DNA of 64,000 bases from Patescibacteria group bacterium (GTDB lineage Bacteria > Patescibacteriota > Minisyncoccia > Moranbacterales > UBA2206): contig JAKLIG010000005.1 in assembly GCA_022709735.1 (NCBI GenBank), positions 5,884-69,883 on the forward strand, given 5' to 3'. The position numbers were made by a program, and so were the translations under genes. The notes under the pieces were generated by a model. That model did not search any database. It was not told where the DNA came from and saw only the letters and a list, made by a program, of their open reading frames with translations. Positions 19,592 to 62,616 of this stretch are shown here, in pieces. How positions within the stretch are numbered: the first letter of the stretch is position 1; each line of letters begins with the position of its first letter.

Positions 19592-19654
19592 TTGTCATGC
19601 TGAATTTATTTCAGCATCTTCTTAGTTGATCCTGGAACAAGTTCAGGATGACAA
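19592..19654. promoter_or_regulatory. TTGTCAT...ATGACAA element copy E2 immediately upstream of lexA; contains palindromes TGCTGAATTTATTTCAGCA and CCTGGAACAAGTTCAGG (candidate operator)
   Basis: Perfect 7-bp inverted repeats with a 5-nt spacer, 13 nt upstream of the lexA start. Confidence 0.4.
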
Positions 19655-19813
19655 AATATTTAATTATTTACAGTGATATGATAGCACTTCTCAAATATCA
19701 CTGCAACTCCCCCTGTGGATAACTCCACCTGCCTGATTTTTCTATCTTATTATCAAGCCTCAACTGTTTGAATTAAATAATCTTTATTCTTAGTTGTGAA
19801 AAAATATAACAAA

Positions 19814-19842
19814 TAAAAAAATCCCCCGCCTAAGCAGGGGAT
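19814..19842 (-). terminator. Rho-independent terminator for the DsbA-like gene (ATCCCC-loop-GGGGAT followed by T7 on the minus strand)
   Basis: Hairpin followed by an A7/T7 run. Confidence 0.6.
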
Positions 19843-19856
19843 TCTTACTTCTTGCT

Positions 19857-19917
19857 TCTTACTTCTTAATTCTTAATTCTTAATTCTTAATTCTTAATTC
19901 TTAATTCTTAATTCTTA
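19857..19917. repeat. Heptanucleotide microsatellite (CTTAATT)x8 overlapping the stop codon of the upstream gene
   Basis: Eight perfect tandem 7-bp units; the TAA stop of 19915..20946 lies inside the array. Confidence 0.9.
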
Positions 19918-20946
19918 ATTACAGCTTCCGCCTTGCGTTGTCGCAGTAGCAGAACTTAGCGCCTTAGCACATTCTGCTGGCGCAGTATTAAACGCATCGC
20001 AAATCGCTTTTTTATATTCTTCGGAATTTCCGTATTTATAAACTGCTTTAGTAGAAACACCGTTGATCAACATCGTTGGCGAACCGCTCGCTCCCGCTTC
20101 AGTCGAAAGTTTTTCATCGGCTTTCATAAGAGTCGCTCCTTCCGCTTTCACGCAAGCAGAAATTTTAGCTGAATTTAGTCCAACGCTTTTTGCGCCCGCT
20201 TCCCAACAAGCTCCGTCAGTTCCGCAATTTTTGTTAACATAAGCCACAAAATTCATCCACTTATCTTTGCCAAAATATTTGAGCACGCAGGCCTCTCTTT
20301 CATTTTGCGCGACTTCTTTTTCTCCATGCAAAGAATTAATTGTGTCTCCACTCGAGCTCACGATATAGCGAAAATTAAAATCAACTTTGTTTTTGAGAAG
20401 TTCATAAACCGATTTCATCGTGTCCTCCGCTTTGTTTCCAAATGGGCAAAAACTCATTACATAAAGATCAACTTTAGGCTTTTCTGCTTTGGGAACTTCC
20501 TTTTCTGGCTCGGCCGCTGCTTGCTTTTGTTCAGCGTTCTTCTTTTTTATTTCTGCTATATCCATCACTTGAGGAAAGAATTTCTTTCCGTCCAATGACA
20601 AATAAGCATCGATCTCTTGTTTTTGCTGTCCTTCCCCCACCGCAACTTTTATCTTAAACATTCCATTCTCTTTGGCGACTTCTCCTATTTCTGCTTTTTC
20701 TCCCTCTTGCATCAAATTATTATTGATAAAATCTTCTACTTGCGCCTTAGCTTCTTTTTGCGTCAGATTATTTTTCTTCCAAACCATTCTGTAATAACCT
20801 AACCCTCCAATGATGATGATAAAAATCAAGACTCCAATTATTTGAGGTAAAAACTTCTTATACTTTCCGCAAAAGTCTTTCCCGCAAAAACATTCTCCTT
20901 TTTCGCAGTTGCACACTTCGGCAGTTTCCTTTTTTTCTGTTTCCAT
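19915..20946 (-). CDS. Membrane-anchored DsbA-like thiol:disulfide oxidoreductase with an N-terminal Cys4 zinc-ribbon-like segment
   Basis: N-terminal CNCEKGECFCGKDFCGK, one TM segment, thioredoxin-fold CxxC (SFCPFGNKAE), and a DsbA-like C-terminal GSPTMLINGV. Confidence 0.6.
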   Translation of the reverse strand: METEKKETAEVCNCEKGECFCGKDFCGKYKKFLPQIIGVLIFIIIIGGLGYYRMVWKKNNLTQKEAKAQVEDFINNNLMQEGEKAEIGEVAKENGMFKIKVAVGEGQQKQEIDAYLSLDGKKFFPQVMDIAEIKKKNAEQKQAAAEPEKEVPKAEKPKVDLYVMSFCPFGNKAEDTMKSVYELLKNKVDFNFRYIVSSSGDTINSLHGEKEVAQNEREACVLKYFGKDKWMNFVAYVNKNCGTDGACWEAGAKSVGLNSAKISACVKAEGATLMKADEKLSTEAGASGSPTMLINGVSTKAVYKYGNSEEYKKAICDAFNTAPAECAKALSSATATTQGGSCN

Positions 20947-40538: not shown

Positions 40539-40643
40539 ATTTCTTTAGAAATAGCTTTTATACTAATATATTAGCACAAATTTTGCCCAAATCAAAAATC
40601 CCTTTTTAGGGGGATTTTTGAGTAAAAAAGCTACTTTATCAAA

Positions 40644-41414
40644 TTATCTATTGGTAGCAGTCATTTTCGAAGCAACCGTTTGCACATCGATTATGTCAAT
40701 TTTCCCATCATCGTTTAAGTTGCAATCAAAATTTCTATTTCTTTCTCCCTTGCAACACCCATAAACTGAACCGCAATCAGTATTCCAACTTGCTTTAACT
40801 ATTTCCAAATCCCTCGAGTCTGTTCTGCCGTCTCGATTTATATCCGCAGTATTATTATTTGGATATGGAGTAGCTATTTTCGAAGCCACTGTCTGCACAT
40901 CCACTATGTCAATTTTCCCATCGTCGTTTAAATTGCAATCGAAATTTTTATTTCTTTCGCCTTTGCAACAACCGTAAGTAGAACTGCAATTAGTATTCCA
41001 GCTATCCTTAACTATTTCTACATCATCCATATCCGTTTTGCCATCGCGATTTATATCCGCAGTATTACTATTTGGATATGGAGTGGTTACTGCTATCTTC
41101 GAAGCAACAGTTTGCACATCCACTATGTCAATTTTACCATCATCGTTTAAATTACAATCAAAGTCCTTATTGACATCGCCTTTGCAACAGCCATAAGCAT
41201 CTTCACAGCTTGTATTCCAATTTGCTTTGACTATCTCCAAATCTGCCATATCGATTTTTCCGTCTCGATTTATATCCGCAGTATTGTTATTAGTATATGG
41301 AGTTCCGCCTGTCATTACTGTCGCCGCCATTATTCCACCTGTTCCAATTATTGCTATAGCCAACGCCACCACAGTTCCAGTTTTAACTTTTGTTTTTGTG
41401 ATTGTTTGAGACAT
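40644..41414 (-). CDS. Secreted/membrane-anchored protein with three tandem dockerin-like Ca-binding repeat pairs
   Basis: N-terminal TM/signal, then 3x about 65-aa repeats: TADINRDGKIDMADLEIVKANWNT.C...YGCCKG..N..FDCNLNDDGKIDIVDVQTVASKI. The DNA shows 3 tandem units of about 200 bp. Confidence 0.55.
   Translation of the reverse strand: MSQTITKTKVKTGTVVALAIAIIGTGGIMAATVMTGGTPYTNNNTADINRDGKIDMADLEIVKANWNTSCEDAYGCCKGDVNKDFDCNLNDDGKIDIVDVQTVASKIAVTTPYPNSNTADINRDGKTDMDDVEIVKDSWNTNCSSTYGCCKGERNKNFDCNLNDDGKIDIVDVQTVASKIATPYPNNNTADINRDGRTDSRDLEIVKASWNTDCGSVYGCCKGERNRNFDCNLNDDGKIDIIDVQTVASKMTATNR
40655..41330. repeat. Three tandem units of about 200-225 bp (roughly 85% identical by eye) encoding the dockerin-like repeats
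   Basis: Repeated blocks begin near 40663, 40862 and 41090. Confidence 0.7.
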
Positions 41415-48624: not shown

Positions 48625-48660
48625 GCCAATTTTGTCTGCGAACATAGTGAGCAGGAACAA

Positions 48661-48788
48661 AATTGAGCATCCCTGCACTAATTCACAAATTAAACTTTTT
48701 ATTAAAATATAACTAAGCCGTAGGCGATTCCGTGGAATAATTTTTACATTAAATAAAATCTCTATTCGGAATTAGTGCGGGATCGCCA
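48661..48788. repeat. Intercistronic repeat family D, copy D1 (about 125 bp, terminal inverted repeats GCATCCCTGCACTAATTC ... GAATTAGTGCGGGAT)
   Basis: Aligns along its length with 62470-62598 (D2). Both have 15-17-bp terminal inverted repeats and an internal AGCCGYAGGCGAATTC core. Confidence 0.7.
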
Positions 48789-48794
48789 GTCAAC

Positions 48795-51061: not shown

Positions 51062-51062
51062 A

Positions 51063-51170
51063 GAATTTTTAATTTTATAATTTTATAATTTTTAAATAAT
51101 TTCTAATGCTAAAATTTTTAAACATTAAAAATTAATATTTATTTATAAAATTAAAAATTCAAAAATTACA
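51063..51170. repeat. Intercistronic AT-rich repeat family A/B, copy A (about 105 bp) between the NuoE-like and NuoF-like genes
   Basis: About 92% identical over about 100 bp to 58258-58372. It begins 2 nt from the NuoF-like start codon. Confidence 0.7.
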
Positions 51171-51175
51171 AAATT

Positions 51176-51589
51176 TTACAAATATTCTTCCAAAATATCC
51201 CGTAGCTTGCTCAAATTAACTTTTTCATAAATTTTTCCATTCACAATCATAATTGGCCCCTCGCCACATTTCCCCAAACAACTTATTTCTTCTGCTTTTA
51301 TTTTGAATGAATTTTCAATTTCTCTGATTATTTCAAAAGAATTGTTGACCGCGCAATTGGCCGAAGAACACACTTGAATCAAAATTTGCGGTTGTTTTTT
51401 TGTTTTTACTAAATCATAAAAACTGGCCGTTTCAAAAACTTTACTTTGGGGGATAGAAAAATAACCAGCGATTTTCTGCGCATCTTCTTCGCTCACATAA
51501 CCAAAAGTGGCGCTAGTTTTTTTTAGCGCCGGAAGTAAATTTTCTACTTTAGGTTCAAATTCCAGAAGTATTTTTTGTATTGTTTGCAT
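51176..51589 (-). CDS. NuoE/HoxE-like thioredoxin-fold 2Fe-2S subunit
   Basis: CSSANCAVNNS ... CLGKCGEGP four-Cys pattern. The likely start is MQTIQKI (51589). Confidence 0.7.
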   Translation of the reverse strand: MQTIQKILLEFEPKVENLLPALKKTSATFGYVSEEDAQKIAGYFSIPQSKVFETASFYDLVKTKKQPQILIQVCSSANCAVNNSFEIIREIENSFKIKAEEISCLGKCGEGPIMIVNGKIYEKVNLSKLRDILEEYL

Positions 51590-51603
51590 AATTTCATACG
51601 GCG

Positions 51604-51686
51604 ACCCGAATTTACAAATGAACACTCGAATGATTCGAATGAATTCGGGACATTCGGATGAAGATTCGAGTTATTCGAGTCGCTTA
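51604..51686. repeat. Intercistronic repeat family C, copy C1 (about 80 bp) between fba stop and NuoE-like start
   Basis: About 90% identical to 60772-60852 and 61214-61293. Its end overlaps the fba stop codon. It lies 15 nt upstream of the downstream ATG, as the other two copies do. Confidence 0.75.
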
Positions 51687-52547
51687 AGCTTTGTCTTCGC
51701 TTCCAAAATATTTTATTTTCTGCTTAACCACTTCCTCGACTGCTTCTCTCGCTTCTTCCAAAAGCTTTCGAATATCAAAAGAAACTTCTTCTTTTTTTGC
51801 AGAGTTTATTATTCGATCGACAAAGGCCATTCTAATTGCCGTATCAACATTAAGACAACTTATTCCTCTTTTTATCACTTCCGCCACTTTTCCATTTTCC
51901 CAATCTGATGCGCCATGAAGAATGAGAGGAATACCTCCGCAAAGTTCATTTATCTTGCTCAGTCTTTCAAAATCCGGCTCTGATCTCTCTCTCACAAATC
52001 CATGCGCATTTCCAATCGCCACTGCCAGCGCGTCTATTCCGGTTTCTTTCACAAATCTTTCCGCTTCGTTTGGATCAGTCATATATTTTTCCCAATTTAT
52101 CTCCCGACTTCCTGCTTCTCCAAGATACGGAACGCTACCCAATTCTCCCTGAACATCGATTCCTTTTTCATGACAGAAATCAACAACTTTTTTTGTTGCT
52201 TCAACATTATCTTCATATTTTTTTCGCGAACCGTCATACATAACTGAAGTTAGACCAATTTCAGCGCAATGCTGGATAATTTCAAAACTTTTTCCGTGAT
52301 CAAGATGAATGCCGACTGGAATTTCTGGCGCATAAAATTCAACATCATTTTTTACTAAATGATAAATTAATCTGCCACCAGCATATTCCATGGTTTTTTC
52401 AGTAATCTGGATAATCACCGGCGAATGCATTTTTTTAGCCGCATCCACAATTGCTCTGGTCGTTTCTAAATTAACTGTGTTAAACGCTCCGACAGCGTAT
52501 CCTCCTTCTTTAGCTTTGGTTAGAATTTCTTTGACTGAAGTAATCAT
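51684..52547 (-). CDS. fba: Class II fructose-bisphosphate aldolase
   Basis: YAVGAFN, HLDHG, Zn ligands and the class II FBA/TBA fold. The likely start is MITSVKEIL. Confidence 0.8.
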   Translation of the reverse strand: MITSVKEILTKAKEGGYAVGAFNTVNLETTRAIVDAAKKMHSPVIIQITEKTMEYAGGRLIYHLVKNDVEFYAPEIPVGIHLDHGKSFEIIQHCAEIGLTSVMYDGSRKKYEDNVEATKKVVDFCHEKGIDVQGELGSVPYLGEAGSREINWEKYMTDPNEAERFVKETGIDALAVAIGNAHGFVRERSEPDFERLSKINELCGGIPLILHGASDWENGKVAEVIKRGISCLNVDTAIRMAFVDRIINSAKKEEVSFDIRKLLEEAREAVEEVVKQKIKYFGSEDKA

Positions 52548-52555
52548 ATTTTTTA

Positions 52556-53320
52556 TTAATTTATTATCTCTGCTATTTTTATAAACTCGTGCGGGGTCAA
52601 ACTTTCTCTTCCTACAAGAACTCCATCCAGCCCTGGTTTCAAACAAACTTGATCAACATTCAAAGAAGAAACGGAACCGCCATAAATAATTTTCACTTTT
52701 TCTGCATATTTTACTCCGAAAAGACCGGAGAGAATTTTTCGAATCAAAACTTTTGCTTCCATAATTTCATTTTCCGTAGGAATGACATCAGTTCCAACCG
52801 ACCAAATTGGTTCATAGGCAATGATAATATTTTCCGCTTTTGTCCGACTGATTTTTTCCAAAGCATTCTTGACTTGCTGACTGATAATTTTTAGCGTCTG
52901 TCCGCTATCTTTTTCTACCTTGGATTCTCCGACACAAATAATTGGCATGAGTCTATTCTTGAGCGCGGAAATAATTTTAAAATTTATTTCTTCATCCCGT
53001 TCACAAAAATATCTCCTTCTTTCGCTGTGCCCGACTATCACATATTCGCAACCAAAATTCTTAAGCATCAATGGAGAAATTTCTCCAGTATATGATCCTT
53101 TTTCTTCCCAAAACATATTTTGAGCACCAATTTTTGTTTTTTTTATTTTAGCTTTTTCAAATCCTTCCAGATGGATAGCCGGCGGGCAAAGAACAATTTC
53201 ACAATTTTTTATTTTTTTTCCGGCCAATTCTTTTTGAAAAAGTTCCAAATATTGGTCTCGCTCTGTCTTGGACAGTATATTCATTTTTAAGTTAGCTACG
53301 ATTATTTTATTCATTTTCAT
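52556..53320 (-). CDS. tpiA: Triosephosphate isomerase
   Basis: ANLKMN, VGHSERR, AYEPIWSVGTD. Confidence 0.85.
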   Translation of the reverse strand: MKMNKIIVANLKMNILSKTERDQYLELFQKELAGKKIKNCEIVLCPPAIHLEGFEKAKIKKTKIGAQNMFWEEKGSYTGEISPLMLKNFGCEYVIVGHSERRRYFCERDEEINFKIISALKNRLMPIICVGESKVEKDSGQTLKIISQQVKNALEKISRTKAENIIIAYEPIWSVGTDVIPTENEIMEAKVLIRKILSGLFGVKYAEKVKIIYGGSVSSLNVDQVCLKPGLDGVLVGRESLTPHEFIKIAEIIN

Positions 53321-53933
53321 TTTTTCTTATATTAATATGTCTTTTTATAAACCAAATAACTCCGACTAAAATTATTATCCCAATAATCAAATCGAATTTA
53401 TGAAAATATACGCCTAAAGTATTCCAGTTCTCTCCTAATTTTTCCCCGATATAGGCCAAAAGAAAACAAAAAGGAAATGAACCTAAGAATGTATAGGTGA
53501 TAAACTGCCAGAAATTCATTCGAGCAATTCCGGCTGGAAGTGAAATAAAAGTTCGAACAACCGGAAGAAGGCGAGAAATAAAAACTGCCGTGTTCCCATA
53601 TTTTTTGAAAAAATTATCCGCGATATCTAAATCATGCTTTGTTACCAGGACATATCGCCCGTATTTTTCAGCCAGTGGCCGTCCGCCGATATAGCCAATC
53701 CAATAAGCTAAAATTGAACCAATCACGCAACCGATTGCTCCGGCCAGAGATACTCCTAAAAGCGAAAATTGCCCTTTGAAAACTAGGTATCCAGAAAAAG
53801 GCATAATTATTTCAGAAGGTAGCGGAATGCAAGCTGATTCAATCGCCATCATCAAAGCCACGCCGGAATATCCCAAGAGAGAAATTCCCCAAATTATAAA
53901 ACTAGCTAAAATTTCAATTATTTTTGCAACCAT
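53307..53933 (-). CDS. DedA-family (VTT/SNARE-associated domain) membrane protein
   Basis: ESACIPLPSEIIMPFSGYLV motif with about 5 TM segments. Length 208 aa. Confidence 0.7.
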   Translation of the reverse strand: MVAKIIEILASFIIWGISLLGYSGVALMMAIESACIPLPSEIIMPFSGYLVFKGQFSLLGVSLAGAIGCVIGSILAYWIGYIGGRPLAEKYGRYVLVTKHDLDIADNFFKKYGNTAVFISRLLPVVRTFISLPAGIARMNFWQFITYTFLGSFPFCFLLAYIGEKLGENWNTLGVYFHKFDLIIGIIILVGVIWFIKRHINIRKNENE

Positions 53934-54943
53934 TAATTTTCTCTTAAAAATTCTGACGCTTCTTCCGGATTCATTGTGATAATTTCAATGCCGGTTGAAA
54001 TTTCAAATCCCGCCCAAATATTCAATTTTGGCAGAATTTCTATATGCCAGTGGAAATGCGGATAATCTTTGCCGTCGCAAGGAGAAGTATGGATATAGAA
54101 ATTAAAATCCGGATTATTAAGTTTCTCACTCAATCTTTTTATCGCTTCGTGAAGCGCTTCGCCTCCTGAAATTTTTTCTTTTTCGCTTATTCTTTCAAAA
54201 TACGGCTTGTGTTTTTTCGGGATAACCCACATTTCAAAATTTGATCTCGATGCAAACGGACAGAAAAGCAAGAAGTCATCGTTTTCAAAAACTATTCTTT
54301 TTTTATGTTCCATTTCCCATTCAATCATCGCACAATAAGCGCAATGTTTGTTTTGCCGGTGATATTTTTCTGCGCCGTCCAATTCGCTTTCAACATAAGG
54401 CGAGATTACCGGAATAGCAATCAGCTGGGAATGCGGATGAGTAATGGATGCTCCGGCCGACGCTCCGTGATTGTGGAAAATATCAATGTAATTTACCGAC
54501 TTTTTATTCATGAGATCAATATATCTCGACTGATAGGCATCCAAAATTTCAGCCACCCCCAGCGGTTCCATTTTCCCAATATGATCATAGTGATCTTTTG
54601 TCACAATTACTTCATGATAACCGATTGAGTCCATCCAAAAATATGGCCCCTCTTCTTTATGTTTGATTTGTCCGCCGGAAGGCCTTGAGAAAGCCGGGAA
54701 CTTATTGGGAAAAACTCGAAGGCTCCAATCATTATCCGTTGTATTATAAATCAAAACATCCTTTTCTTGGCCACTCGCTTCGGGATTGCAAAACAAACAA
54801 TCATTCGGATTTTCTTCGATTAATTCTTTTTCTTTTTTAATGAATTCGTCCGGACGGCGCGAGCGGATTTTGGAAACGACTACCCAATCCCCCGTTACCA
54901 AATCTTGCCGAAGTTCTGAAATTTTATTTTTTTCCTCCTTCAC
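53933..54943 (-). CDS. Galactose-1-phosphate uridylyltransferase (GalT)-family HIT-like nucleotidyltransferase
   Basis: N-terminal CLFCNPE zinc-site cysteines, and HxHxQ in ITHPHSQLIAIP. Confidence 0.6.
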   Translation of the reverse strand: MKEEKNKISELRQDLVTGDWVVVSKIRSRRPDEFIKKEKELIEENPNDCLFCNPEASGQEKDVLIYNTTDNDWSLRVFPNKFPAFSRPSGGQIKHKEEGPYFWMDSIGYHEVIVTKDHYDHIGKMEPLGVAEILDAYQSRYIDLMNKKSVNYIDIFHNHGASAGASITHPHSQLIAIPVISPYVESELDGAEKYHRQNKHCAYCAMIEWEMEHKKRIVFENDDFLLFCPFASRSNFEMWVIPKKHKPYFERISEKEKISGGEALHEAIKRLSEKLNNPDFNFYIHTSPCDGKDYPHFHWHIEILPKLNIWAGFEISTGIEIITMNPEEASEFLREN

Positions 54944-54967
54944 TTTTATTTTATTTTAAAATTATTT

Positions 54968-55735
54968 TTATTTTTCAAATTCGCTCATTTTTTTATTGAG
55001 CTGATAAACTCCTCGCACCTTATTCCACCAAACCTTGAATAATTCTCGAAATGTAATAAGATAACCCTTGATTCCAACCAAACTATTTCCCATATCCAGC
55101 CATTCGACCGGCACTTCTTCTATTTTGTAGCCTAATTTTTTCGCGATCATCAAAATTTCAAAATCAATTCCCCAGCGATCAACTTTTGTCCGCGGAAAAA
55201 CTTCTTTCACCACTTCTTCTTTGAAAGCTTTGAAACCGCATTGCGTATCATAAATTCCATACAGTCCCATCATAATTTGAATCAAAATATTTCCAGCATT
55301 CCCCATCCATTCTTTCCATTTTGGCTGGTGTTTTTTTATGCTCGAAGCCTTAAGATCTCTTGAACCAATTACTATGTCGGTCTCTTTGAATTTTGGAATA
55401 AAATTATCCAAATTATCAATTGGCGTTGCGCCGTCCATATCAGTCCAGATCACCCATTCTCCTTTAGCCATTGCAAATCCTTCTCGAATACTATAGCCCT
55501 TGCCCTTATTTTCTTTTCTGTCGATTATTCTAAAGTTAGGTTTATTCTTAATTTTATCTCTGACTATTTCCGCTGTTTTGTCAGTTGGCCCGTCCAGCGC
55601 AATTATGACCTCATAACTCTTCCCTATTTTTTCAAAATAACTTTTAATAGAGTTGAGATGATCCTCCATTTCTTTTTCTTTTGGCGCTTCGTTGTAGGTT
55701 GGAATAACTACAGATATAAATGGTTTCTGTTCCAT
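54968..55735 (-). CDS. Family 2 glycosyltransferase (dolichyl/polyprenyl-phosphate glycosyltransferase-like)
   Basis: ISVVIPTYNE ... ALDGPTDKT ... DMDG motifs. Length 255 aa. Confidence 0.7.
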   Translation of the reverse strand: MEQKPFISVVIPTYNEAPKEKEMEDHLNSIKSYFEKIGKSYEVIIALDGPTDKTAEIVRDKIKNKPNFRIIDRKENKGKGYSIREGFAMAKGEWVIWTDMDGATPIDNLDNFIPKFKETDIVIGSRDLKASSIKKHQPKWKEWMGNAGNILIQIMMGLYGIYDTQCGFKAFKEEVVKEVFPRTKVDRWGIDFEILMIAKKLGYKIEEVPVEWLDMGNSLVGIKGYLITFRELFKVWWNKVRGVYQLNKKMSEFEK

Positions 55736-55861
55736 TTTTCTTGTGGGTTAATGGTTATTTATTGACTATATTGTAGCATAGAATTGATGAATTATGAAGT
55801 ATGAATCAAGAATTAGGAATTTTAAAATTTTATTCATAATTCATGCTTCTTAATTCCTAAT

Positions 55862-56287
55862 TCATTTCTTGTCCAGCCAGCTTTGAAGAATAATCCTCGC
55901 CGCTTCCTGATCATCAAATCTTTTGACGCCTTTGACTTTTTTGGCAATTAAATTCGCCTGCGCCATTTTGGTCGTGAACATTTCATTTTGATATTCAATT
56001 TCCATCTTAGGCAAAGATTTTTTTATCATTTCTCCTAGCTTTTCGCCTTCGTAAACGACCTCTTTTTTATTTATATAGCTCGGCACACCGATAATAATCT
56101 TGGAAATATTTTCTTTTTGGATAATTTTCAGCAAATTTTCCAGAAAATTTTTGTCATTTTCCAGTGTATTATAGGCAAAAGCAATTTTAGTCTCAAAATC
56201 TGCCAAAGCCAAACCAACTTTGGCTTCTCCAAAATCTATACCGAGAATGTGGCTTATTTGAGGGTCATTTTGCTGGTCTATTGACAT
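55862..56287 (-). CDS. ruvX: RuvX/YqgF Holliday-junction-resolvase-like nuclease
   Basis: ILGIDFGEAKVGLALAD RNase-H-like motif. The likely start is MSIDQQ. Confidence 0.75.
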   Translation of the reverse strand: MSIDQQNDPQISHILGIDFGEAKVGLALADFETKIAFAYNTLENDKNFLENLLKIIQKENISKIIIGVPSYINKKEVVYEGEKLGEMIKKSLPKMEIEYQNEMFTTKMAQANLIAKKVKGVKRFDDQEAARIILQSWLDKK

Positions 56288-56377
56288 ATTAGTAAAATTA
56301 GCGTATAATTTAGAGTTAGTATTAAAGTAAAGAATGTTCCCTAACAACAATAATATAAATTAAAAAAGGGGTGGCTT

Positions 56378-56746
56378 ATGAAATTAACAGGATGGGTCTA
56401 TTTTCTGGTTTTGGGAGGATTATTTCTGCTCGCAGGGAATGCTGGCTTTTCTGAAGGTCATTCAGTATTCGGATGGTGCTATATAACACTCGGGGTAGTT
56501 GTATTATTTTTTCCTTTTATCCTGAGATTCATTCAATCGAAGGGGAAGAAAAAGTTTTTCTGGAAATCGCTCCGAGTAGTTGGCAGCGGGATTGTTATTT
56601 TTACTATTGGCATCGTGTCTTGTGTATATGATGTCAATAATATTTTTAACAATCTTTATATTCTTATGCTTATTGGAGTAGCTTGCATGCTTGGCATAGG
56701 AATATCGCTAATTGTAGTATCCTCCTGGAAGTTACAGGAGAGATAG
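56378..56746 (+). CDS. Hypothetical polytopic membrane protein (122 aa)
   Basis: RBS AAAAGGGGTGG and four hydrophobic segments. Confidence 0.5.
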   Translation: MKLTGWVYFLVLGGLFLLAGNAGFSEGHSVFGWCYITLGVVVLFFPFILRFIQSKGKKKFFWKSLRVVGSGIVIFTIGIVSCVYDVNNIFNNLYILMLIGVACMLGIGISLIVVSSWKLQER

Positions 56747-56799
56747 GATAAGTTCGCTTTGTGATCATTCAACAATGATTGTCACTGAGCTTATCCGAA

Positions 56800-56838
56800 A
56801 ACCGGGACATGTCTAGCAGTAGACCCCCGGTTTTTTTA
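56800..56838. terminator. Terminator hairpin (AACCGGG...CCCGGTT + T7) between convergent genes
   Basis: Read directly from the sequence. Confidence 0.65.
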
Positions 56839-57597
56839 TTTTCTTGTCAAAATCTCGCACCCTCCTTTTTTGACTAGCACTGTATCTTCAAAATGCGCGC
56901 TAAGTTTTCCGTCGTCCGTAATATATGTCCAACCATCCGCGCCTAATTTAATCCTAAACTTTCCTTCATTTATCATCGGCTCAAGCGCGAGCGTCATTCC
57001 TTCTTTGAGAATTATGTCTTTGACATTCCAGCGATAATTTGGAATCTGCGGATCTTCATGAAGAATTTTTCCAACGCCGTGTCCGACTAAATCGCGAATA
57101 ACAGAAAATCCAAAAGTGCGAACATAACTTTCAACTGCCTCGGAATATTCGCTAAGCTTTGCTCCGGCTCTAATTTTTGCAATTCCTTGATTCAACGCTT
57201 CCTGCGTCGCTTTCACTAACTTATGCGCTTCAAGACTCACTGTTCCAACAGGAAATGTGCGAGCCATATCAGTTATCATTCCCTTATATTCCATGCCAAT
57301 GTCAATTTTCACCAAATCGCCTTCTCGAATTATAATTTTTTCGCTCGGAATTCCATGCACCACTTCATTATTTATCGAAGCGCAAATTGTCGCAGGATAT
57401 GGATTATTTTTTTCTCCATAACCTTTGAAGGCAGGTTTGCCCCCATTATCAAAAACAAGTCTCTCCGCGAGCTTGTCTAGTTCCAATGTATTTATGCCCG
57501 GAGCAATTTTCTCTCCTATTTCTTCCATAATACCCGCCAAAATTTTCCCTCCCCGGCGCATTGATTCTATTTCATTTTGAGTTTTAATTACTACCAT
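56836..57597 (-). CDS. map: Methionine aminopeptidase type I
   Basis: Pita-bread fold motifs (VVHGIP..., DLVKIDIG, metal ligands D/D/H/E/E). Confidence 0.88.
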   Translation of the reverse strand: MVVIKTQNEIESMRRGGKILAGIMEEIGEKIAPGINTLELDKLAERLVFDNGGKPAFKGYGEKNNPYPATICASINNEVVHGIPSEKIIIREGDLVKIDIGMEYKGMITDMARTFPVGTVSLEAHKLVKATQEALNQGIAKIRAGAKLSEYSEAVESYVRTFGFSVIRDLVGHGVGKILHEDPQIPNYRWNVKDIILKEGMTLALEPMINEGKFRIKLGADGWTYITDDGKLSAHFEDTVLVKKGGCEILTRK

Positions 57598-58256
57598 ATT
57601 TTCTCTAATATATCCTCGAACACTTTTTCAATTTCCTGATCACCGTTAATTTCTGCTAACTTTCCTTCTTTTTTATAATATTCCACAATTGGCATCGTTT
57701 CTTCTTTGAATATCCCCAATCTTTTTTTCACACCTTCTTCACTGTCATCAATCCGCTGAATTATTTTCCCTCCACATTCATTGCCTGCCTGCCGGTAGGC
57801 ATGGCATTTTTCTCCTGCACTCTGAATATCTTTTCCTAGAATAAAAACTTTTTTGCATTTTTCACAAACTCTTCTTTTGGAGATTCTTTTGATTGATTCT
57901 TCCTTTGAAAGATTAATGGAAATAACTTTGTCTATTTTTCTTCCTGATTCTTTGATCGCTTCTTCAAAATAGCCAAGCTGATCAATGCTTCTCGGCACCC
58001 CATCAAAAACAATTCCTTGTTCTCTTGGAAGCCCTAATAATTTCAAATGGATCACTTCTCGTAATATTCTGTCGCTTACTAATTCTTTTTTAATGTTAAC
58101 GATTTCGTGAATTTCTTTTCCAAGCGGAGTTTCAAGAAGCGCTACCTCGCGCAAAAACTTTCCCATATCAATATGTTCCGCTTCAAATTTCTTTGCTAAT
58201 TTTTCCGCTTGCGTTCCTTTGCCGGAACCTTGCGGACCTAAAATTACTATATTCAA
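57591..58256 (-). CDS. adk: Adenylate kinase (with Cys4 LID zinc site)
   Basis: NIVILGPQGSGKGTQA P-loop; CEKCKK...C...C in the LID. Apparent TTG start. Confidence 0.85.
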   Translation of the reverse strand: MNIVILGPQGSGKGTQAEKLAKKFEAEHIDMGKFLREVALLETPLGKEIHEIVNIKKELVSDRILREVIHLKLLGLPREQGIVFDGVPRSIDQLGYFEEAIKESGRKIDKVISINLSKEESIKRISKRRVCEKCKKVFILGKDIQSAGEKCHAYRQAGNECGGKIIQRIDDSEEGVKKRLGIFKEETMPIVEYYKKEGKLAEINGDQEIEKVFEDILEKIW

Positions 58257-58257
58257 A

Positions 58258-58372
58258 AAATTTTATAATTTTATAATTTTATAATTTTTAAATAATTTTT
58301 AATGCCAAATTTTTAAACATTAGAAATTAAGATTTATTTATAAAATTAAAAATTGGAAATTAAAAATTCGAG
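58258..58372. repeat. Intercistronic AT-rich repeat family A/B, copy B (about 110 bp) between secY stop and adk start
   Basis: Aligns with 51063-51170. It contains one extra TTTTATAA unit. Confidence 0.7.
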
Positions 58373-58385
58373 CGAAGCGAGTTTT

Positions 58386-59657
58386 TCAAAATCCTTCGTA
58401 ATCCCTCATTACCAATTGTCCTTCAATTTGATTGATAAGTTCAATTACCACGGAAACTACGATCAAAAGTCCCGTGCCTCCAATTGAAACTGAACCGATG
58501 CTGGTAAAATTTTGAACAATGAAAGGCAAGACGGCAATGAGCCCAAGAAACACGGCGCCGGTGAGCGTCACGCGATTCATAATCCGAAAAAGATATTCGG
58601 AAGTATTTTTTCCCGGACGAATTCCCGGAACATATCCGCCTTGTTTTTGCAAATTTTCCGCAATTTTGTTGGGATCAAAAACTACCGCGGTATAAAAATA
58701 AGTGAAAGCTACAACTAGAACGAAATAAATTGCGCCGTAGAAAAATTGATTTTGGAAAAAATTTCCCACTGCGCGCGCAATTCCAGCAACTGTTCCATTG
58801 GAAGAGCTAGCCAAAAAATTTGCTACCATTCCTGGGAAAAGCATAATCGACATCGCAAAAATAATTGGGATAACTCCGGCTTGATTGATGCGAAGCGGAA
58901 GATGCGTGGAAGTTCCGCCATACATTCGGTTTCCTCGAATTCTCTTGGCATAAGAAATGGGAATATTTCTCTGCCCTTCCGTCATAAAAACCACTGCGCC
59001 AACCGCGCCAACTGTGATGGCTAAAAATATAATATAAGTGAAAAGTTGGGATGAATCCCAAGTGGAAACAATGCGGGAAATCGCTGAAGGCAAACTAGAA
59101 ACTATGCCGGCAAAGATAATAAGCGAAACTCCATTGCCGATTTTTTTTTCTGTAATCAACTCACCTAGCCACATCAGAAATATCGTTCCGGCCACAGCTA
59201 CAATTATAATTGAGGCTAGCCCAAACATACCTTCCGGCGCCATAATTTGTTGAGCACGAAAAAGCGACATCATACCAATTGTTTGAAGCGCCGCGAGAGG
59301 AACTGTGAGCCAGCGAGTCCATTGATTGAATTTTTCCCGGCCGGCTTCGCCTTCTTCCTTGTAGATTTGTTCGAGTCTCGGGCTAATCATTGTCATAAGC
59401 TGCATAATAATAGAAGAGGTAATGTATGGTCCGACTCCGAGCATCACGATTGAAATACTGGATAGTCCTCCGCCGGAAAAAAGATTAAGTAGCCCGAAAA
59501 ATTGATTGTTATCAAAAAACATCTTGAGTCTTTCCTGGTCAATTCCTGGTATAGGAATGTTGGCCGCCAGACGAAAAATTACCAAAAGCGCCAAGATAAA
59601 AAATATCTTGTTTCTTAGTTCTTTTACTTTGAAGATTTGGATTATTTTGTCAAACAT
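58386..59657 (-). CDS. secY: Preprotein translocase subunit SecY
   Basis: 10-TM SecY topology and motifs. Length 423 aa. Confidence 0.9.
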   Translation of the reverse strand: MFDKIIQIFKVKELRNKIFFILALLVIFRLAANIPIPGIDQERLKMFFDNNQFFGLLNLFSGGGLSSISIVMLGVGPYITSSIIMQLMTMISPRLEQIYKEEGEAGREKFNQWTRWLTVPLAALQTIGMMSLFRAQQIMAPEGMFGLASIIIVAVAGTIFLMWLGELITEKKIGNGVSLIIFAGIVSSLPSAISRIVSTWDSSQLFTYIIFLAITVGAVGAVVFMTEGQRNIPISYAKRIRGNRMYGGTSTHLPLRINQAGVIPIIFAMSIMLFPGMVANFLASSSNGTVAGIARAVGNFFQNQFFYGAIYFVLVVAFTYFYTAVVFDPNKIAENLQKQGGYVPGIRPGKNTSEYLFRIMNRVTLTGAVFLGLIAVLPFIVQNFTSIGSVSIGGTGLLIVVSVVIELINQIEGQLVMRDYEGF

Positions 59658-59660
59658 AAG

Positions 59661-59720
59661 TTAGCTTTTAGCTTTTAGCTTTTAGCTTTTAGCTTTCTCT
59701 ATAAGCTATAAGCTAACTCC
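59661..59720. repeat. Heptamer microsatellite (AGCTTTT)x5 followed by (TATAAGC) units
   Basis: GTTAGCTTTTAGCTTTTAGCTTTTAGCTTTTAGCTTTCTCTATAAGCTATAAGCTAAC. Confidence 0.85.
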
Positions 59721-60157
59721 TATAAGCTAATCTTGCTATTGGATTTTTCAATTGACTTTGAAAAGAGAATGCCTTTTTCAAAAGAAAGTTTCTTTGTAAT
59801 TTTCCCGCCACCGATAATTTTCACACCATTCTTTTTATTCTTTCTGTCAATTAAACCGGCCTGAATTAAAGTATCAATGCTTACAGTTTCTCCATCCTTG
59901 AATTTTTTTTCAATCTTGGAAAACTGGACTATATTCTTTTTTTCTTTTCTAGATTTGAAACCTCTATTTTTTTTCATGTGATCAATAAGCGTTGAGCGCC
60001 CGCCTTCAAATAAAGGATCAACATGCGCGCCACTTCGCGCCTTTTGCCCCTTGTTTCCCTTACCACAATATGTTCCCTTTTTTCCGCCTCGCCCGATAGT
60101 CTTTCTTTTTTTTCTTTTATTATTAAGTTTTAGATTATTAACTTGCATATTTTTCAT
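59720..60157 (-). CDS. rplO: 50S ribosomal protein L15
   Basis: GRGGKKGTYCGKGNKGQKARSG matches the uL15 signature. Confidence 0.8.
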   Translation of the reverse strand: MKNMQVNNLKLNNKRKKRKTIGRGGKKGTYCGKGNKGQKARSGAHVDPLFEGGRSTLIDHMKKNRGFKSRKEKKNIVQFSKIEKKFKDGETVSIDTLIQAGLIDRKNKKNGVKIIGGGKITKKLSFEKGILFSKSIEKSNSKISL

Positions 60158-60259
60158 TTACGAACTACGAAATGATCGAAATACGAAACGTTTTTAGATA
60201 TATTCTCGTATTAATTTTTCGTATTTTCGTATTTAGTATTAATTTCGTATTTCGTAAAA

Positions 60260-60757
60260 CTATTTCATTCTTTCTCCTCTTGTTTTTGAATCTTTAAGAA
60301 TTTTCAAAGCTTCAATGGTGGCTCTCGCAACATTCAGCTTGTTCGCTGTTCCTAGAGATTTTGAAACGATATCTTTTATTCCAGCCAAATCAATGACCGC
60401 TCGCACTGCACCTCCTGCCACGATTCCTCGTCCTTTCGGCGCTGGTTTCAAAATTATCTTAGCACTGCCTGATTTTATGAATATATCATGGCTAATCGTA
60501 TTTTTTTGAACATCAATGTTTATCATGTTCTTTTTGCCGTCATCAAAAGCTTTTTTGATTGCATCTGTCACATCAGCGCCTTTTCCGACTCCTACACCTA
60601 CTCGCCCTTTTTTATTGCCAATAACCAAAGTAGCGCGGAATCTAAATCTTCTTCCACCCTTAACCACGCGAGTGACTCTCGCTAAATCCAAAAGTTTTTG
60701 GTCATATTCCGGCTTTTCTCTTCTGCCTTTTGATCTTCGATTATTATCTCTTCCCAT
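60260..60757 (-). CDS. rpsE: 30S ribosomal protein S5
   Basis: dsRBD-like N-terminal and S5 C-terminal domains (VVKGGRRFRF...). Confidence 0.88.
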   Translation of the reverse strand: MGRDNNRRSKGRREKPEYDQKLLDLARVTRVVKGGRRFRFRATLVIGNKKGRVGVGVGKGADVTDAIKKAFDDGKKNMINIDVQKNTISHDIFIKSGSAKIILKPAPKGRGIVAGGAVRAVIDLAGIKDIVSKSLGTANKLNVARATIEALKILKDSKTRGERMK

Positions 60758-60771
60758 TTGATTTATGCGAC

Positions 60772-60852
60772 ACTAATTTACGAATGATCACTCGAATGTT
60801 TCGAATAAATTCGGGTCATTCGGGTGATAATTCGTATTATTCGAGTCGCTTT
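60772..60852. repeat. Intercistronic repeat family C, copy C2 (between L18 stop and S5 start)
   Basis: TAATTTACGAATGATCACTCGAATGTTTCGAATAAATTCGGGTCATTCGGGTGATAATTCGTATTATTCGAGTCGCTTT. Confidence 0.75.
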
Positions 60853-61199
60853 TAGAATTTTAATCCGCCCGTTCTTGCTCCTTCAGCCAGAGCTTTTATT
60901 TTTCCGTGATATTTATAACCGCTTCTATCATATACGACTTCATTAATTTTTTTCTCAAGACATTTTTTCGCTACCAATTCTCCGACGCTTTTCGCTCCTT
61001 CTAAATTATTTTTAGCTTTTTTTATTTCCTTAAGACTGGCAAAAACCAGCGTCTTTCCCTTGGTGTCATCAATTACTTGCGCCGATATTCCCTTAAGGCT
61101 TTTGAAAACTGAAAGTCGCGGTCTTTTAGCCTCGCCTTTAACTTTCGCCCTTACGCGTCTTTTTCGATGGAGTCTTAGATTGTTTCTACTTGTTTTCAT
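60852..61199 (-). CDS. rplR: 50S ribosomal protein L18
   Basis: uL18 N-terminal basic region and fold. Length 115 aa. Confidence 0.85.
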   Translation of the reverse strand: MKTSRNNLRLHRKRRVRAKVKGEAKRPRLSVFKSLKGISAQVIDDTKGKTLVFASLKEIKKAKNNLEGAKSVGELVAKKCLEKKINEVVYDRSGYKYHGKIKALAEGARTGGLKF

Positions 61200-61213
61200 A
61201 TAATTTATGCAAC

Positions 61214-61293
61214 CCTAATTTACGAATGAACACTCGAATTATTCGAATGAATTCGGGTCATTCGGGTGATAATTCGTGTCATTCGAGTCGCTT
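61214..61293. repeat. Intercistronic repeat family C, copy C3 (between L6 stop and L18 start)
   Basis: Near-identical to C2. It ends at the L6 stop codon and lies 15 nt upstream of the L18 ATG. Confidence 0.75.
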
Positions 61294-61837
61294 ATTTAAC
61301 GGCTCCCGCTTTTTTTCCAACTTTTCTTATAACTTTTTCTCCCTGATATCTGAATCCTTTTCCTTTATACGGTTCAACTTTCTTAAGCGCTCTAATGTTT
61401 GCGGTAAATTGTCCAACTTTTTGCTTGTCAAATCCAGAAATAGACAGCGTGTTATTTTCTTCAATTTTAACTGTCAGTCCTTCCGGAACAATTACTTCTA
61501 CCGGATGAGAAAATCCCAGCGCCATAACTAATTTCTTGCCCTGAAGAGACATTCGAAATCCCACGCCCTGAAGCTCCAATTTTTTCTCATAACCATTTTT
61601 TGCGCCAATAATCATATTATTCACCAGCGCCCGAGTGAGCCCCCAAAGCGCATTCGCTTCCTTGGAACTTCTAAGTGGAGAGGTTTTTATTTCTCCGTCA
61701 GCTATTTCCAATTTGATCTGGCGATTAACTTCCAAATTCAAAGTTCCCTTGGGGCCTTTTACTTCCAATTTATCACCTTCGAGTTTTACTTCAATCCCCT
61801 GCGGAATTGTAATTATTTTTTTTCCTATTTTTGACAT
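61292..61837 (-). CDS. rplF: 50S ribosomal protein L6
   Basis: Two uL6 alpha/beta repeats. The likely start is MSKIGKKIITIP. Confidence 0.85.
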   Translation of the reverse strand: MSKIGKKIITIPQGIEVKLEGDKLEVKGPKGTLNLEVNRQIKLEIADGEIKTSPLRSSKEANALWGLTRALVNNMIIGAKNGYEKKLELQGVGFRMSLQGKKLVMALGFSHPVEVIVPEGLTVKIEENNTLSISGFDKQKVGQFTANIRALKKVEPYKGKGFRYQGEKVIRKVGKKAGAVK

Positions 61838-62440: not shown

Positions 62441-62469
62441 AATTGTCTTCGAGCGGAGCGAGAAGCTAC

Positions 62470-62598
62470 AATTATGAGCATCCCGCACCAATTCACAGAT
62501 TAATTTTTCTATTACATCTTAGCTTAGCCGCAGGCGAATTCGCAATTTAAATTATACACTTTGTAAAATTTTAATTGGAATTGGTGCGGGATAGCCAT
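62470..62598. repeat. Intercistronic repeat family D, copy D2 (terminal inverted repeats GCATCCCGCACCAATTC ... GAATTGGTGCGGGAT)
   Basis: Aligns with 48661-48788. It lies between the L5 stop and the S14 start. Confidence 0.7.
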
Positions 62599-62616
62599 CT
62601 TTTTTCTTCTTTATTG

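Follow-up and report, generated by a model that had tools for sequence, protein, structure and literature searches.

The window analysed here is a stretch of 64,000 nucleotides on an 82-kb source contig of an uncultured member of the Moranbacteria (CPR). On its minus strand, the junctions fba/NuoE-like, L18/S5 and L6/L18 each contain one copy of a short repeat, termed family C; the flanking operons are essential, with core ribosomal and glycolytic genes next to the copies (Pfam). A preceding inspection of the letters (the sequence-only reading) had named the same three junctions, and the Pfam matches and JGI gene calls from which the flanking genes were identified agree with it. The copies, the codons enclosing them and the unpaired tails between hairpin and start codon are as follows:

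51601..51683, minus strand: family C copy c1, an 83-nt imperfect-palindrome hairpin at the fba/NuoE-like junction (MFE -30.6 kcal/mol, 29 bp, z -4.5)
51686-51684 and 51589-51587, minus strand: TAA of fba and ATG of the NuoE-like gene around c1
51590..51600, minus strand: unpaired A/U-rich 11-nt tail CGTATGAAATT from hairpin c1 to the start codon
60767..60849, minus strand: family C copy c2, hairpin at the L18/S5 junction (MFE -30.6, 31 bp, z -6 to -8)
60854-60852 and 60757-60755, minus strand: TAA of L18 and ATG of S5 around c2
60758..60766, minus strand: unpaired 9-nt tail ATAAATCAA from hairpin c2 to the S5 start codon
61209..61291, minus strand: family C copy c3, hairpin at the L6/L18 junction (MFE -25.7, 28 bp, z -4 to -5)
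61294-61292 and 61199-61197, minus strand: TAA of L6 and ATG of L18 around c3
61200..61208, minus strand: unpaired 9-nt tail ATAAATTAT from hairpin c3 to the L18 start codon

Exactly three copies were retrieved from the window by repeat search, by nhmmer (E 1e-30 to 1e-32; the runner-up match reached only E 0.8) and by a scan for the core pattern (three matches versus 0.02 expected); the count covers about 74 kb examined. All of them are intergenic and in sense orientation on the minus strand, and their pairwise identities over the 83-nt hairpin amount to 86%, 88% and 90%, consistent with the three copies and the approximately 90% identity reported before. The 83-bp unit has been copied to at least three junctions. 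The same elements were detected by nhmmer at matching places in three other independent assemblies, which rules out an assembly artefact; the exact core pattern gave no match in the public genome, metagenome and viral collections scanned.

The 5' end of the element meets the upstream stop codon, as already recognised from the letters: GCGAC directly follows TAA in c1 and c3 (0 nt), and two nucleotides intervene in c2 (TAA-AA-GCGAC). On the downstream side, the spacing is tightly constrained, but the value of exactly 15 nt given by the sequence-only reading is incorrect: counted from the final base pair of the fold, ATG follows after 11 (c1), 9 (c2) and 9 nt (c3); the end coordinates underlying the earlier value differ in register between the copies and give 14 nt for each copy, but at non-homologous positions. 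The supposedly common GCATAAAT(T/C)A(T/A)ATG context is restricted to c2 and c3, c1 having GCCGTATGAAATTATG instead. The c2 tail is similar to native short spacers of this genome, e.g. ACATAAATTT before L6. A Shine-Dalgarno motif is absent from the c1 tail; SD-like motifs precede only about 14 of the 65 genes of the window. The plus-strand ORFs 61190-61531 and 51507-51908, which share the translation NLxMNTRxIRMNSGHS...SSRL, are indeed spurious and correspond to the opposite strand of the element.

According to the folding predictions, each copy forms one long imperfect hairpin of 28-31 bp with internal loops and an apical tetraloop, in place of the multi-stem structure formerly proposed. The entire unit is a non-coding inverted repeat (termini GCGAC...GTCGC; G+C content 40-43%) with arms that consist of arrays of 8-12-nt units: CGAAT occurs at positions 7, 16, 28, 37 and 47 (spacing of 9, 12, 9 and 10 nt, 5' arm) and ATTCG at 44, 53 and 65 (9 and 12 nt, 3' arm). 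A search of the window against Rfam 15, including the ribosomal-protein leaders, gave no match at gathering thresholds; the sub-threshold matches were miRNA-precursor-like chance matches (25-26 bits versus thresholds of 80-100).

For comparison, about 150 related SecY-region loci were inspected, with spacer-length statistics based on 2080 junctions. The spacer lengths were bimodally distributed (a peak at 0-30 nt and a shoulder at 80-110 nt), and the loci yielded 126 whole-spacer hairpins, distributed over 56 genomes. Elements of this type (60-120 nt) are widespread in the ribosomal-protein operons of Patescibacteria; the occupancy of junctions by hairpins fell from 14.5% in the closest relatives through 7.0% and 5.8% to 0.5% in non-Patescibacteria as SecY identity dropped from at least 75% to below 50%. 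The unpaired tails of the class are asymmetric, with a median of 2 nt on the 5' side and 7 nt on the 3' side (Wilcoxon p = 9e-10), and both sides added together give a median of 10 nt, equal to that of the native short spacers. Within families, 27 of 28 independent comparisons were co-oriented (binomial p = 2e-7). In the two relatives L005 and L006 (90% SecY identity), the L6-L18 and L18-S5 spacers comprise 21 and 15 nt between conserved coding flanks, compared with 92 and 94 nt in the present genome; conversely, both relatives carry elements with CGAAT units at S17-L14 and L14-L24, where the present genome has spacers of 4 and 20 nt. Judged by these comparisons, related elements have been gained and lost at orthologous junctions among close relatives. 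Two sister genomes, L008 and L090, harbor families of their own with six and nine copies, respectively; each copy fills the whole spacer, and the copies have precise common ends. The number of 5'-arm units varies among those of L008, which indicates slippage. The (T)ACGAA(A/T)/CGAAT motif recurred at shared junctions in no fewer than seven genomes, other elements of the class are built from unrelated units (AGCTAAA, GTTAAAA, CATAACG, AT-only), and one and the same junction can hold elements of quite different sequence in different genomes. Some spacers contain a one-armed tandem array only, e.g. L18-S5 and fba-nuoE (CATGAAA x4) of genome L007. By crude gene calls, approximately 20% of the repeated-element sites are located in convergent or divergent spacers.

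Among known systems, REPs were first described as intercistronic operon elements and influence mRNA stability (PMC3184786); REPINs form hairpins of about 100 nt in ssDNA or mRNA and constitute genome-specific families with hairpin-keeping compensatory changes (PMC3116915). Family C shares their repeated, extragenic, palindromic, non-coding and hairpin-forming nature. However, REPs are G+C-rich stem-loops of 20-40 nt with a conserved head motif, of which REPINs are doublets, they reach tens to hundreds of copies per genome, as opposed to three in the approximately 74 kb examined, and they alternate in orientation, in contrast to the uniform orientation of family C; a RAYT (Y1 transposase) gene, which in REPIN systems is flanked by the same repeats, was not seen among the Pfam matches of the 82-kb contig. 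An inverted REP doublet was rejected: the single 83-nt hairpin of 40-43% G+C with its CGAAT/ATTCG units contains no REP-like sub-unit. Bacterial MITEs are shorter than 200 bp, have terminal inverted repeats and are polymorphic in presence at orthologous intergenic sites (PMC3184786). Family C resembles Correia/NEMIS of Neisseria, ERIC/IRU of enterobacteria and RUP/BOX of Streptococcus in size, terminal inverted repeats, lack of coding capacity and long predicted hairpin, and presence/absence polymorphism was found at L6-L18 and L18-S5 relative to L005/L006; it differs from them in filling the whole stop-start spacer (with 0-2 nt left over at one end and 9-11 nt at the opposite end), in its co-orientation and in the tandem short-unit arrays of its arms. 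When Correia and ERIC elements are transcribed together with their neighbors, RNase III or RNase E cleaves their hairpins, with altered stability of the neighboring cistrons. Phage T7 mRNAs and E. coli operons likewise contain imperfect intercistronic hairpins, 60-100 nt long and interrupted by internal loops, that are processed by RNase III; they represent a functional analogue to the imperfect intercistronic hairpin predicted for family C, but are conserved functional signals, whereas family C is a turnover-prone repeat family. Sites of this type present some 20 bp or more of near-continuous dsRNA in the transcript; the helix predicted for family C comprises 28-31 bp with internal loops.

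The Rickettsia palindromic elements (RPEs) are likewise palindromic repeats that a reduced genome tolerates at uncommon locations; as far as cited in PMC3184786 (Ogata et al. 2000), they occur inside genes. The UvrC ORF of the window holds an in-frame unit-repeat sequence of similar style, reminiscent of RPEs within Rickettsia genes, while the family C copies are all intergenic and unrelated to RPEs in sequence. Integron attC sites and Vibrio cholerae repeats, which are recognised as folded single strands, are also species-specific imperfect palindromes (60-140 nt) positioned just downstream of ORFs in one orientation; an assignment to attC was dismissed, as the copies contain no R''/R' core sites (RYYYAAC / GTTRRRY; GTTRRRY is absent), their flanks are core glycolytic and universal ribosomal-protein genes, the latter in conserved order, and not cassettes, and Pfam revealed no integrase on the 82-kb contig. 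TIGR arrays (TIGR-Tas) possess box C as well as box D motifs around two variable 8-12-nt spacers beside a Nop-domain tas gene (PMC12045711). This candidate was discarded as well: none of the copies has UGAUGA or CUGA, the stretches between the units are conserved from copy to copy, nearly the whole hairpin is paired, and no Nop-domain gene was identified by Pfam on the contig.

Taken together, we consider it probable (roughly 0.6) that family C represents a short palindromic repeat, dispersed and without coding capacity, REPIN/MITE-like in behavior and specific to this Moranbacteria lineage, and that it is tolerated since folding of the hairpin re-establishes the native stop-start distance of about 10 nt. 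A mobile REP/MITE-like element with target preference had been envisaged before. Its mobility is supported by the empty orthologous junctions, by the occurrence of the superfamily elsewhere in relatives and by the six- and nine-copy sister families; the apparent preference, in turn, is largely a consequence of genome compactness, since the median native spacer measures only 10 nt and a viable insertion has to fall within a few nucleotides of both codons. Survival of copies would be limited to the tiny spacers of the compact genome. Copying might proceed by IS200/RAYT-type single-strand hairpin transposition, by another transposase acting in trans or by template switching. No transposase of any kind (including Y1_Tnp) was among the Pfam matches of the 82-kb source contig, nor did the contig contain a parent insertion sequence with matching termini. 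A clear target-site duplication was not observed (TA/TAA possible at c3, with indels at c1, not at c2), and chance TA/TAA matches are likely in these AT-rich flanks. In the polycistronic mRNA, the hairpin base would return stop and next start to their native separation, with 9-11 nt of unpaired, A/U-rich leader remaining; most genes of this genome lack a Shine-Dalgarno sequence. On termination at the stop codon, the ribosome would open the base of the hairpin and thereby make the following initiation region accessible, which would maintain or even enforce translational coupling; possibly, the hairpin also protects or punctuates the mRNA. These effects on coupling and mRNA are inferred; an RNA-level role of family C is plausible. 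The near-perfect co-orientation speaks against a dispersed repeat of this kind, as it is unlike most MITEs, Correia and ERIC, and could reflect selection on the RNA.

Alternatively, the hairpin could primarily be an RNA device that acts in cis and is under selection (a processing site of the RNase III type, a barrier to 3'-exonucleases setting the relative stability of cistrons or a coupling-enforcing structure) and that has spread by recruitment of a useful module, which we regard as unlikely. The high stability of the hairpins (z -4 to -8), the strict sense co-orientation of the families and the asymmetric tails, which leave the initiation region unpaired, are in line with such a device; furthermore, when a REP lies less than 16 nt away from a stop codon, the gene upstream is reportedly translated less, as far as cited in PMC12306157. 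Among the three copies, unpaired columns carried substitutions at 2.6 times the density of paired ones (Fisher p = 0.05) and all three pair-preserving changes were G-U on the sense strand, but the covariation called for by the sequence-only reading did not emerge (no double compensatory change, five single changes that disrupt pairs). In the sister-family alignment of four genomes, pairing was preserved in 97% of the cells, and 4 of 27 pairs showed double changes. Across the 126 hairpins, however, the sense strand had neither a folding-energy advantage over the antisense strand (p = 0.65) nor a significant G-U excess (328 versus 272, p = 0.15); moreover, the closest relatives lack any element at the same junctions, different genomes fill a given junction with different sequences, and, by the crude gene calls, about 20% of the repeated-element sites are in convergent or divergent spacers. 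A more speculative extension, to which we give somewhat less credence still, would treat the sense-oriented whole-spacer cassettes as a Patescibacteria-wide system of operon "punctuation": portable modules, processed by a host RNase or used by terminating ribosomes to re-initiate in largely SD-less genomes and spread by a strand-specific hairpin-recognising machinery, with family C as a recently amplified one.

Growth of the hairpins in place, i.e. by slippage of 7-10-nt units and intrastrand template switching of the arms, with similar copies arising by ectopic gene conversion and no transposition, appears improbable. It would account for the tandem unit arrays and their variable number in L008, the one-armed arrays, the completely filled spacers and the strand-symmetric folding expected of a DNA-level process, and template switching is a documented source of perfect hairpins (PMC8794818). 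Yet three 83-nt copies of 86-90% identity, 9 kb apart and without flanking homology, make independent growth impossible, conversion without flanking homology is no established mechanism, and the copies in L090 and L008 have precise common ends. That the phased CGAAT/ATTCG units, spaced by 9-12 nt (about one helical turn), form a DNA- or dsRNA-binding array for a putative protein, so that the element would serve a structural or regulatory purpose instead of being a selfish repeat, is very doubtful: the regular spacing and the recurrence of the motif at the same junctions in several genomes would fit, but many class members use unrelated units, a known candidate protein is lacking, and the periodicity is a natural outcome of unit slippage. 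Least credible are intrinsic terminators or attenuators tuning the stoichiometry of operon products. Although the intercistronic hairpins are strong and a permissive terminator scan caught sub-stems, the full hairpin is followed by AUAAAU or CGUAUG without a U-run, the region gave 14 matches versus 10.2 +/- 2.8 in shuffled sequence (no excess), and the evident terminators of the genome are GC-rich stems followed by T-runs (e.g. in spacers 15276-15455, 19580-19914 and 40539-40643).

As a dispersed repeat, family C falls within a larger "CGAAT-unit" superfamily and, more broadly still, within the operon-spacer hairpin class of Patescibacteria; as judged from the sequence comparison, it is one lineage-specific family within this widespread class of gap-filling hairpins, of which a much larger, apparently undescribed population exists in this bacterial group. 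The window itself contains further spacer hairpins:

60158..60259, minus strand: different whole-spacer hairpin with TACGAAA units, S5-L15 (z -4.2; separated by 2 nt from the stop and by 0 nt from ATG)
59658..59719, minus strand: whole-spacer hairpin with TTAGCTT / AAGCTAA units, L15-SecY (z -8.6)
58257..58385, minus strand: AT-rich hairpin, SecY-adk, of the same family as 51062-51175 (repeat search)
51062..51175, minus strand: AT-rich hairpin in the spacer of the NuoE-like / NuoF-like genes
62441..62616, minus strand: hairpin element of about 120 nt with CCCGCACCAATT termini, L5-S14
48646..48794, minus strand: another copy of the hairpin element with CCCGCACCAATT termini, at the NuoG-like/HypC junction

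The CCCGCACCAATT-terminated family was also encountered at other junctions in relatives, namely at L15-SecY of L005-L007, and in L008.

Family C, an 83-nt hairpin repeat, is a real feature that largely matches its first description, and a variant of the REP/MITE kind is the best classification for it. Three copies of about 80 bp had been claimed in a sequence-only reading of the window, and repeat search grouping together with a profile search confirmed these three and none further in the window: the profile built from them recovered the copies with nhmmer E-values of 1e-30 to 1e-32 (next-best match, E 0.8), and a 21-base core pattern of the family matched 3 times in the window versus 0.02 expected. 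The identities of the flanking genes are based on Pfam and on the JGI gene calls for the source contig.

Copies of family C and their flanking codons
c1, minus strand: fba TAA 51686-51684; gap 0 nt; hairpin 51683-51601; tail 11 nt; ATG 51589-51587 of a NuoE-like 2Fe-2S protein
c2, minus strand: L18 TAA 60854-60852; gap AA; hairpin 60849-60767; tail 9 nt; ATG 60757-60755 of S5
c3, minus strand: L6 TAA 61294-61292; gap 0 nt; hairpin 61291-61209; tail 9 nt; ATG 61199-61197 of L18

The distance to the downstream ATG, originally described as exactly 15 nt, is 11, 9 and 9 nt when taken from the hairpin, the three end coordinates of that reading being non-homologous positions; its remark on spurious look-alike plus-strand ORFs over the copies was correct. 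The 83-nt cores align without gaps (pairwise identity 86%, 88% and 90%; termini GCGACTCGAAT...GTCGC), and each is predicted to form a single long imperfect hairpin of 28-31 base pairs with an apical tetraloop (MFE -26 to -31 kcal/mol; z-score -4 to -8 against shuffles, the opposite strand folding about equally well). The arms are arrays of pentamers (CGAAT at 7, 16, 28, 37 and 47; ATTCG at 44, 53 and 65) with a consequent unit spacing of 9-12 nt; a simple mirror-image pairing register was ruled out because the hairpin contains bulges.

The window originates from an 82-kb JGI metagenome contig (3300009776, Ga0116154_10000225) that was placed in Candidatus Moranbacteria (Patescibacteria/CPR) by SecY-based retrieval of 160 related loci, the nearest genomes being UBA12116, UBA2206 and UBA4824 (SecY identity 90%); a tRNA/tmRNA scan yielded none. 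Family C elements are present at identical junctions in three other assemblies (ENA ERZ795055, ERZ27257480 and Logan SRR5007146) and are therefore no assembly artefact. The exact core CGAATGNCCCGAATTNATTCGAA gave 0 matches in collections of genomes, metagenomes and viral contigs, the source contig itself evidently lying outside the metagenome collection.

Family C is no isolated curiosity: between 48 and 63 kb of the window, most long co-directional spacers are whole-spacer hairpins, i.e. elements occupying the stop-to-start spacer between operon genes, that are composed of other short units.

Other spacer hairpins of the window
S5-L15 spacer, 60158-60259: hairpin of TACGAAA units
L15-SecY spacer: hairpin of TTAGCTT/AAGCTAA units
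SecY-adk spacer, 58257-58385, and NuoE-NuoF spacer, 51062-51175: two copies of an AT-rich family, an almost pure A/T hairpin (AATTTTTAATTTTATAAATAAAT...ATTATAAAATTATAAAATT)
L5-S14 spacer, 62441-62616, and NuoG-HypC spacer, 48646-48794: hairpin family of about 120 nt with CCCGCACCAATT termini
55736-55861: whole-spacer hairpin

The S5-L15 spacer is the site where L30 would stand; L30 is located between S5 and L15 in most bacteria, and its absence, as in the window, is typical of CPR. The hairpin at this site shares its first 21 nt (TAGTTTTACGAAATACGAAAT) without mismatch with the beginning of the L18-S5 spacer, a different junction, in the related SecY-region locus L007.

In every locus, the survey followed the gene order from tuf to map over 23 successive junctions (2080 in total) and revealed a bimodal distribution of spacer lengths, which peaks mainly at 0-30 nt and forms a shoulder at 80-110 nt. 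According to the criteria applied (spacer of 55-160 nt, single hairpin over at least 75% of the spacer, z < -2.5), 126 of the 368 spacers of 55-160 nt, from 56 genomes, are single whole-spacer hairpins. Such hairpins occupy 14.5% of junctions in loci with a SecY identity to the window of at least 75%, 7.0% at 60-75%, 5.8% at 50-60%, and 0.5% (2/397) below 50%, the latter mostly Firmicutes-like controls; at maximum occupancy, 9 of the 23 junctions of one ribosomal-protein operon hold genome-specific hairpins of about 100 nt. Family C is one visible part of a phenomenon that is class-wide among Patescibacteria operons; a non-exhaustive full-text literature search retrieved no description of such elements in Patescibacteria.

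The fixed position between stop and start codon that had been ascribed to the element is partly trivial: native spacers in the surveyed operons are so short (median 10 nt, IQR 3-22) that any non-lethal insertion comes to lie within a few nucleotides of both codons. The regularity of the tail lengths across the 126 hairpins is real: unpaired tails are shorter on the 5' side (median 2 nt) than on the 3' side (median 7 nt; paired Wilcoxon p = 9e-10), and the two together come to a median of 10 nt, equal to that of a native short spacer. Family C fits this pattern with 0-2 nt upstream and 9-11 nt downstream, its tails (ATAAATTAT, ATAAATCAA) being similar to native spacers, e.g. ACATAAATTT before L6. 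As a Shine-Dalgarno-like (GGAG-like) motif is present upstream of only about 14 of the 65 predicted genes in the window, initiation generally depends on A/U-rich unstructured leaders; the sequence ahead of most start codons is A/T-rich and frequently contains TAAAT. By folding, the hairpin would render the insertion topologically neutral, with stop and start as far apart as in a native junction; on termination at the stop codon, a ribosome would have to melt the hairpin base, and the next initiation region would thereby be freed.

The orthologous junctions have conserved coding flanks, between which lies a short spacer in some genomes and a genome-specific hairpin, filling the spacer, in others. 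The L6-L18 spacer comprises 92 nt in the window, 21 nt in the related loci L005/L006, 77 nt in L007 (a different element) and 115 nt in L008, and the L18-S5 spacer 94 nt in the window versus 15 nt in L005/L006. A combined profile of family C and the repeat family of L008 located related elements of the CGAAT type. In L005/L006 they lie at S17-L14 and L14-L24, junctions with spacers of 4 and 20 nt in the window; further ones are in L104, L123, L090, L023 and others. Locus L008 (83% SecY identity) contains six copies of this sister family, whose termini align with those of family C (5' GCGAYNCGAAT; 3' CATTCGTNNATTNGNNTCGS followed by TAAAT). In L090, another family, of 106-119 nt, is present in nine copies at nine junctions, with two homologous copies in the source genome outside the window (source contig L001, 4659-4764 and 5676-5782, at L2-S19 and L22-S3); its arms of 5' CGAAT and 3' ATTAG units would pair with a regular G-A mismatch, and it folds only weakly by canonical pairing (z about 0 to -3.4). 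The last unit of c2 and c3 exhibits the same change, from ATTCG to ATTAG. The CCCGCACCAATT-terminated family is a second, more widely shared, mobile-looking family that resides at L5-S14 and NuoG-HypC in the window but at L15-SecY in L005-L007; its termini are GGCTATCCCGCACCAATTCC...GGAATTGGTGCGGGATGCTCA, and it was also seen in L008 at about 3270-3575.

The shifting junction occupancy and the multicopy families cannot arise without copying from site to site and frequent gains or losses. Since the unit number varies in one arm of the L008 copies and some spacers consist of a one-armed tandem array only, slippage also reshapes elements in place. One-armed arrays with no or a partial complementary arm were observed in the fba to NuoE-like spacer of L007 and in the L18-S5 spacers of L007, L085 and L093, with the units (CATGAAA)x4, (TACGAAA)n, (GTTAAAA)x4 and (CATAACG)x4; such arrays may be stages in the growth or the decay of a hairpin. 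Perfect hairpins are documented to arise by template switching (PMC8794818).

Within genomes, 15 repeat families were identified over 43 ribosomal-operon junctions, and their copies are co-oriented in 27 of 28 independent comparisons (binomial p = 2e-7), with orientation score differences far beyond what the tails could account for. Because all these junctions are on one strand, the bias may follow either transcription or the replication strand; GC skew in the window tracks the coding strand, without a replication switch. A single informative case, two copies of an AGCTAA-unit hairpin in L108 (5517-5596 and 16926-17004) that are direct on the chromosome in oppositely oriented operons, favours a DNA-strand-linked mechanism, albeit as one datum only. 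Three other apparent cases of this kind were artefacts of crude ORF calling, and elements of AGCTAAA units are not orientable from their arms because the palindrome reads alike both ways.

Evidence for selection at the RNA level is weak. The covariation proposed as a check of a conserved structure did not emerge from the three family C copies, as none of the base pairs has changed on both sides in a compensatory way; of the single changes, three preserve pairing as G-U and five break pairs, and variable columns amount to 8 of 62 paired versus 7 of 21 unpaired positions (Fisher p = 0.05). Neither strand folds better across the 126 hairpins (64 sense versus 60 antisense, p = 0.65), and G-U pairs are in slight sense excess (328 versus 272, p = 0.15). 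In the sister-family alignment (ten sequences, four genomes), pairing is kept in 97% of cells, double changes occur at 4 of 27 pairs, and the covariation score lies above all 500 shuffles and all slid controls. This shows that the sister-family palindrome is maintained, either at the RNA or at the DNA level. A joint alignment of family C and the L008 family resulted in a poor consensus structure, since the repeated CGAAT units permit several pairing registers; family-specific structures were used instead.

With regard to other identities, Rfam at gathering and permissive thresholds contained no meaningful match for family C. A canonical terminator was ruled out by the missing U-run after the hairpin, the evident terminators of this genome being GC-rich stems followed by T-runs; likewise a TIGR array (box C/D motifs and variable spacers absent, no Nop-domain gene on the contig) and an integron attC site (no core sites, no integrase on the contig, core genes as flanks). 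A ribosomal-protein-specific autoregulatory leader is excluded by the copy between fba and the hydrogenase/NuoE-like gene alone. Among known kinds, family C comes closest to REPINs/REPs (PMC3116915, PMC3184786) and to MITEs that form hairpins, e.g. Correia and ERIC, which share with it the extragenic palindromic repeats, genome-specific families, intercistronic site and presence/absence polymorphism. In contrast to these, family C has AT-rich unit-array arms without a REP sub-unit, the comparison of filled with empty sites revealed no consistent target-site duplication, and no transposase of any kind was among the Pfam hits of the 82-kb contig; its class further deviates in that the copies are almost all co-oriented and exactly fill the spacers between stop and start in a streamlined genome's most conserved operons. 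A report cited in PMC12306157 describes reduced translation of the upstream gene when a REP is less than 16 nt from a stop codon. By analogy, an effect of family C on the upstream cistron is possible, because all three copies are positioned 0-2 nt from the stop.

The genomes of CPR/Patescibacteria count as extremely streamlined, and ribosomal-protein operons rank with the most compact and most conserved of known loci; hairpins nevertheless occupy up to 9 of 23 junctions in one such operon, turn over between close relatives and have a nearly uniform orientation. Should the elements be selfish, the palindrome would be invisible to selection inside essential operons, its folding restoring the stop-start geometry; if they are functional, they would point to mRNA processing or translational coupling of a hitherto unrecognised kind in organisms mostly without Shine-Dalgarno sequences. 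In practice, the elements give rise to false ORFs on the antisense strand, make the intergenic distances on which operon prediction relies too large, and can break short-read assemblies.

Repeat-like DNA is also present elsewhere in the window. The UvrC ORF (13336-14739, minus strand) contains about 130-150 nt of in-frame, repeat-element-like DNA at 14178-14333, comprising a AAAATTTTCAATTTTTCCGCC...GGCGGACAATTTCCAATTTTCAAT palindrome, AATTACCAATTTCC units and (AAGCTAT/AAGCTAA)n; it terminates in ...GCTATTTATG exactly as the L15-SecY spacer element does at its 3' end. Judged by its sequence, the insert resembles an in-frame insertion of the RPE style that separates the GIY-YIG domain from the remainder of UvrC; solved structures of UvrC do not extend over this region, and none of the retrieved loci includes uvrC. 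About 11 GAATTAA/GAAGTAA heptamers (minus strand) are arranged in tandem at 19841-19920, directly upstream of a GC-rich terminator-like hairpin in the 335-nt spacer 19580-19914. A dockerin/EF-hand-like gene (40644-41414) includes three internal tandem repeats of 213 nt (40656-41300) that are 77-82% identical.
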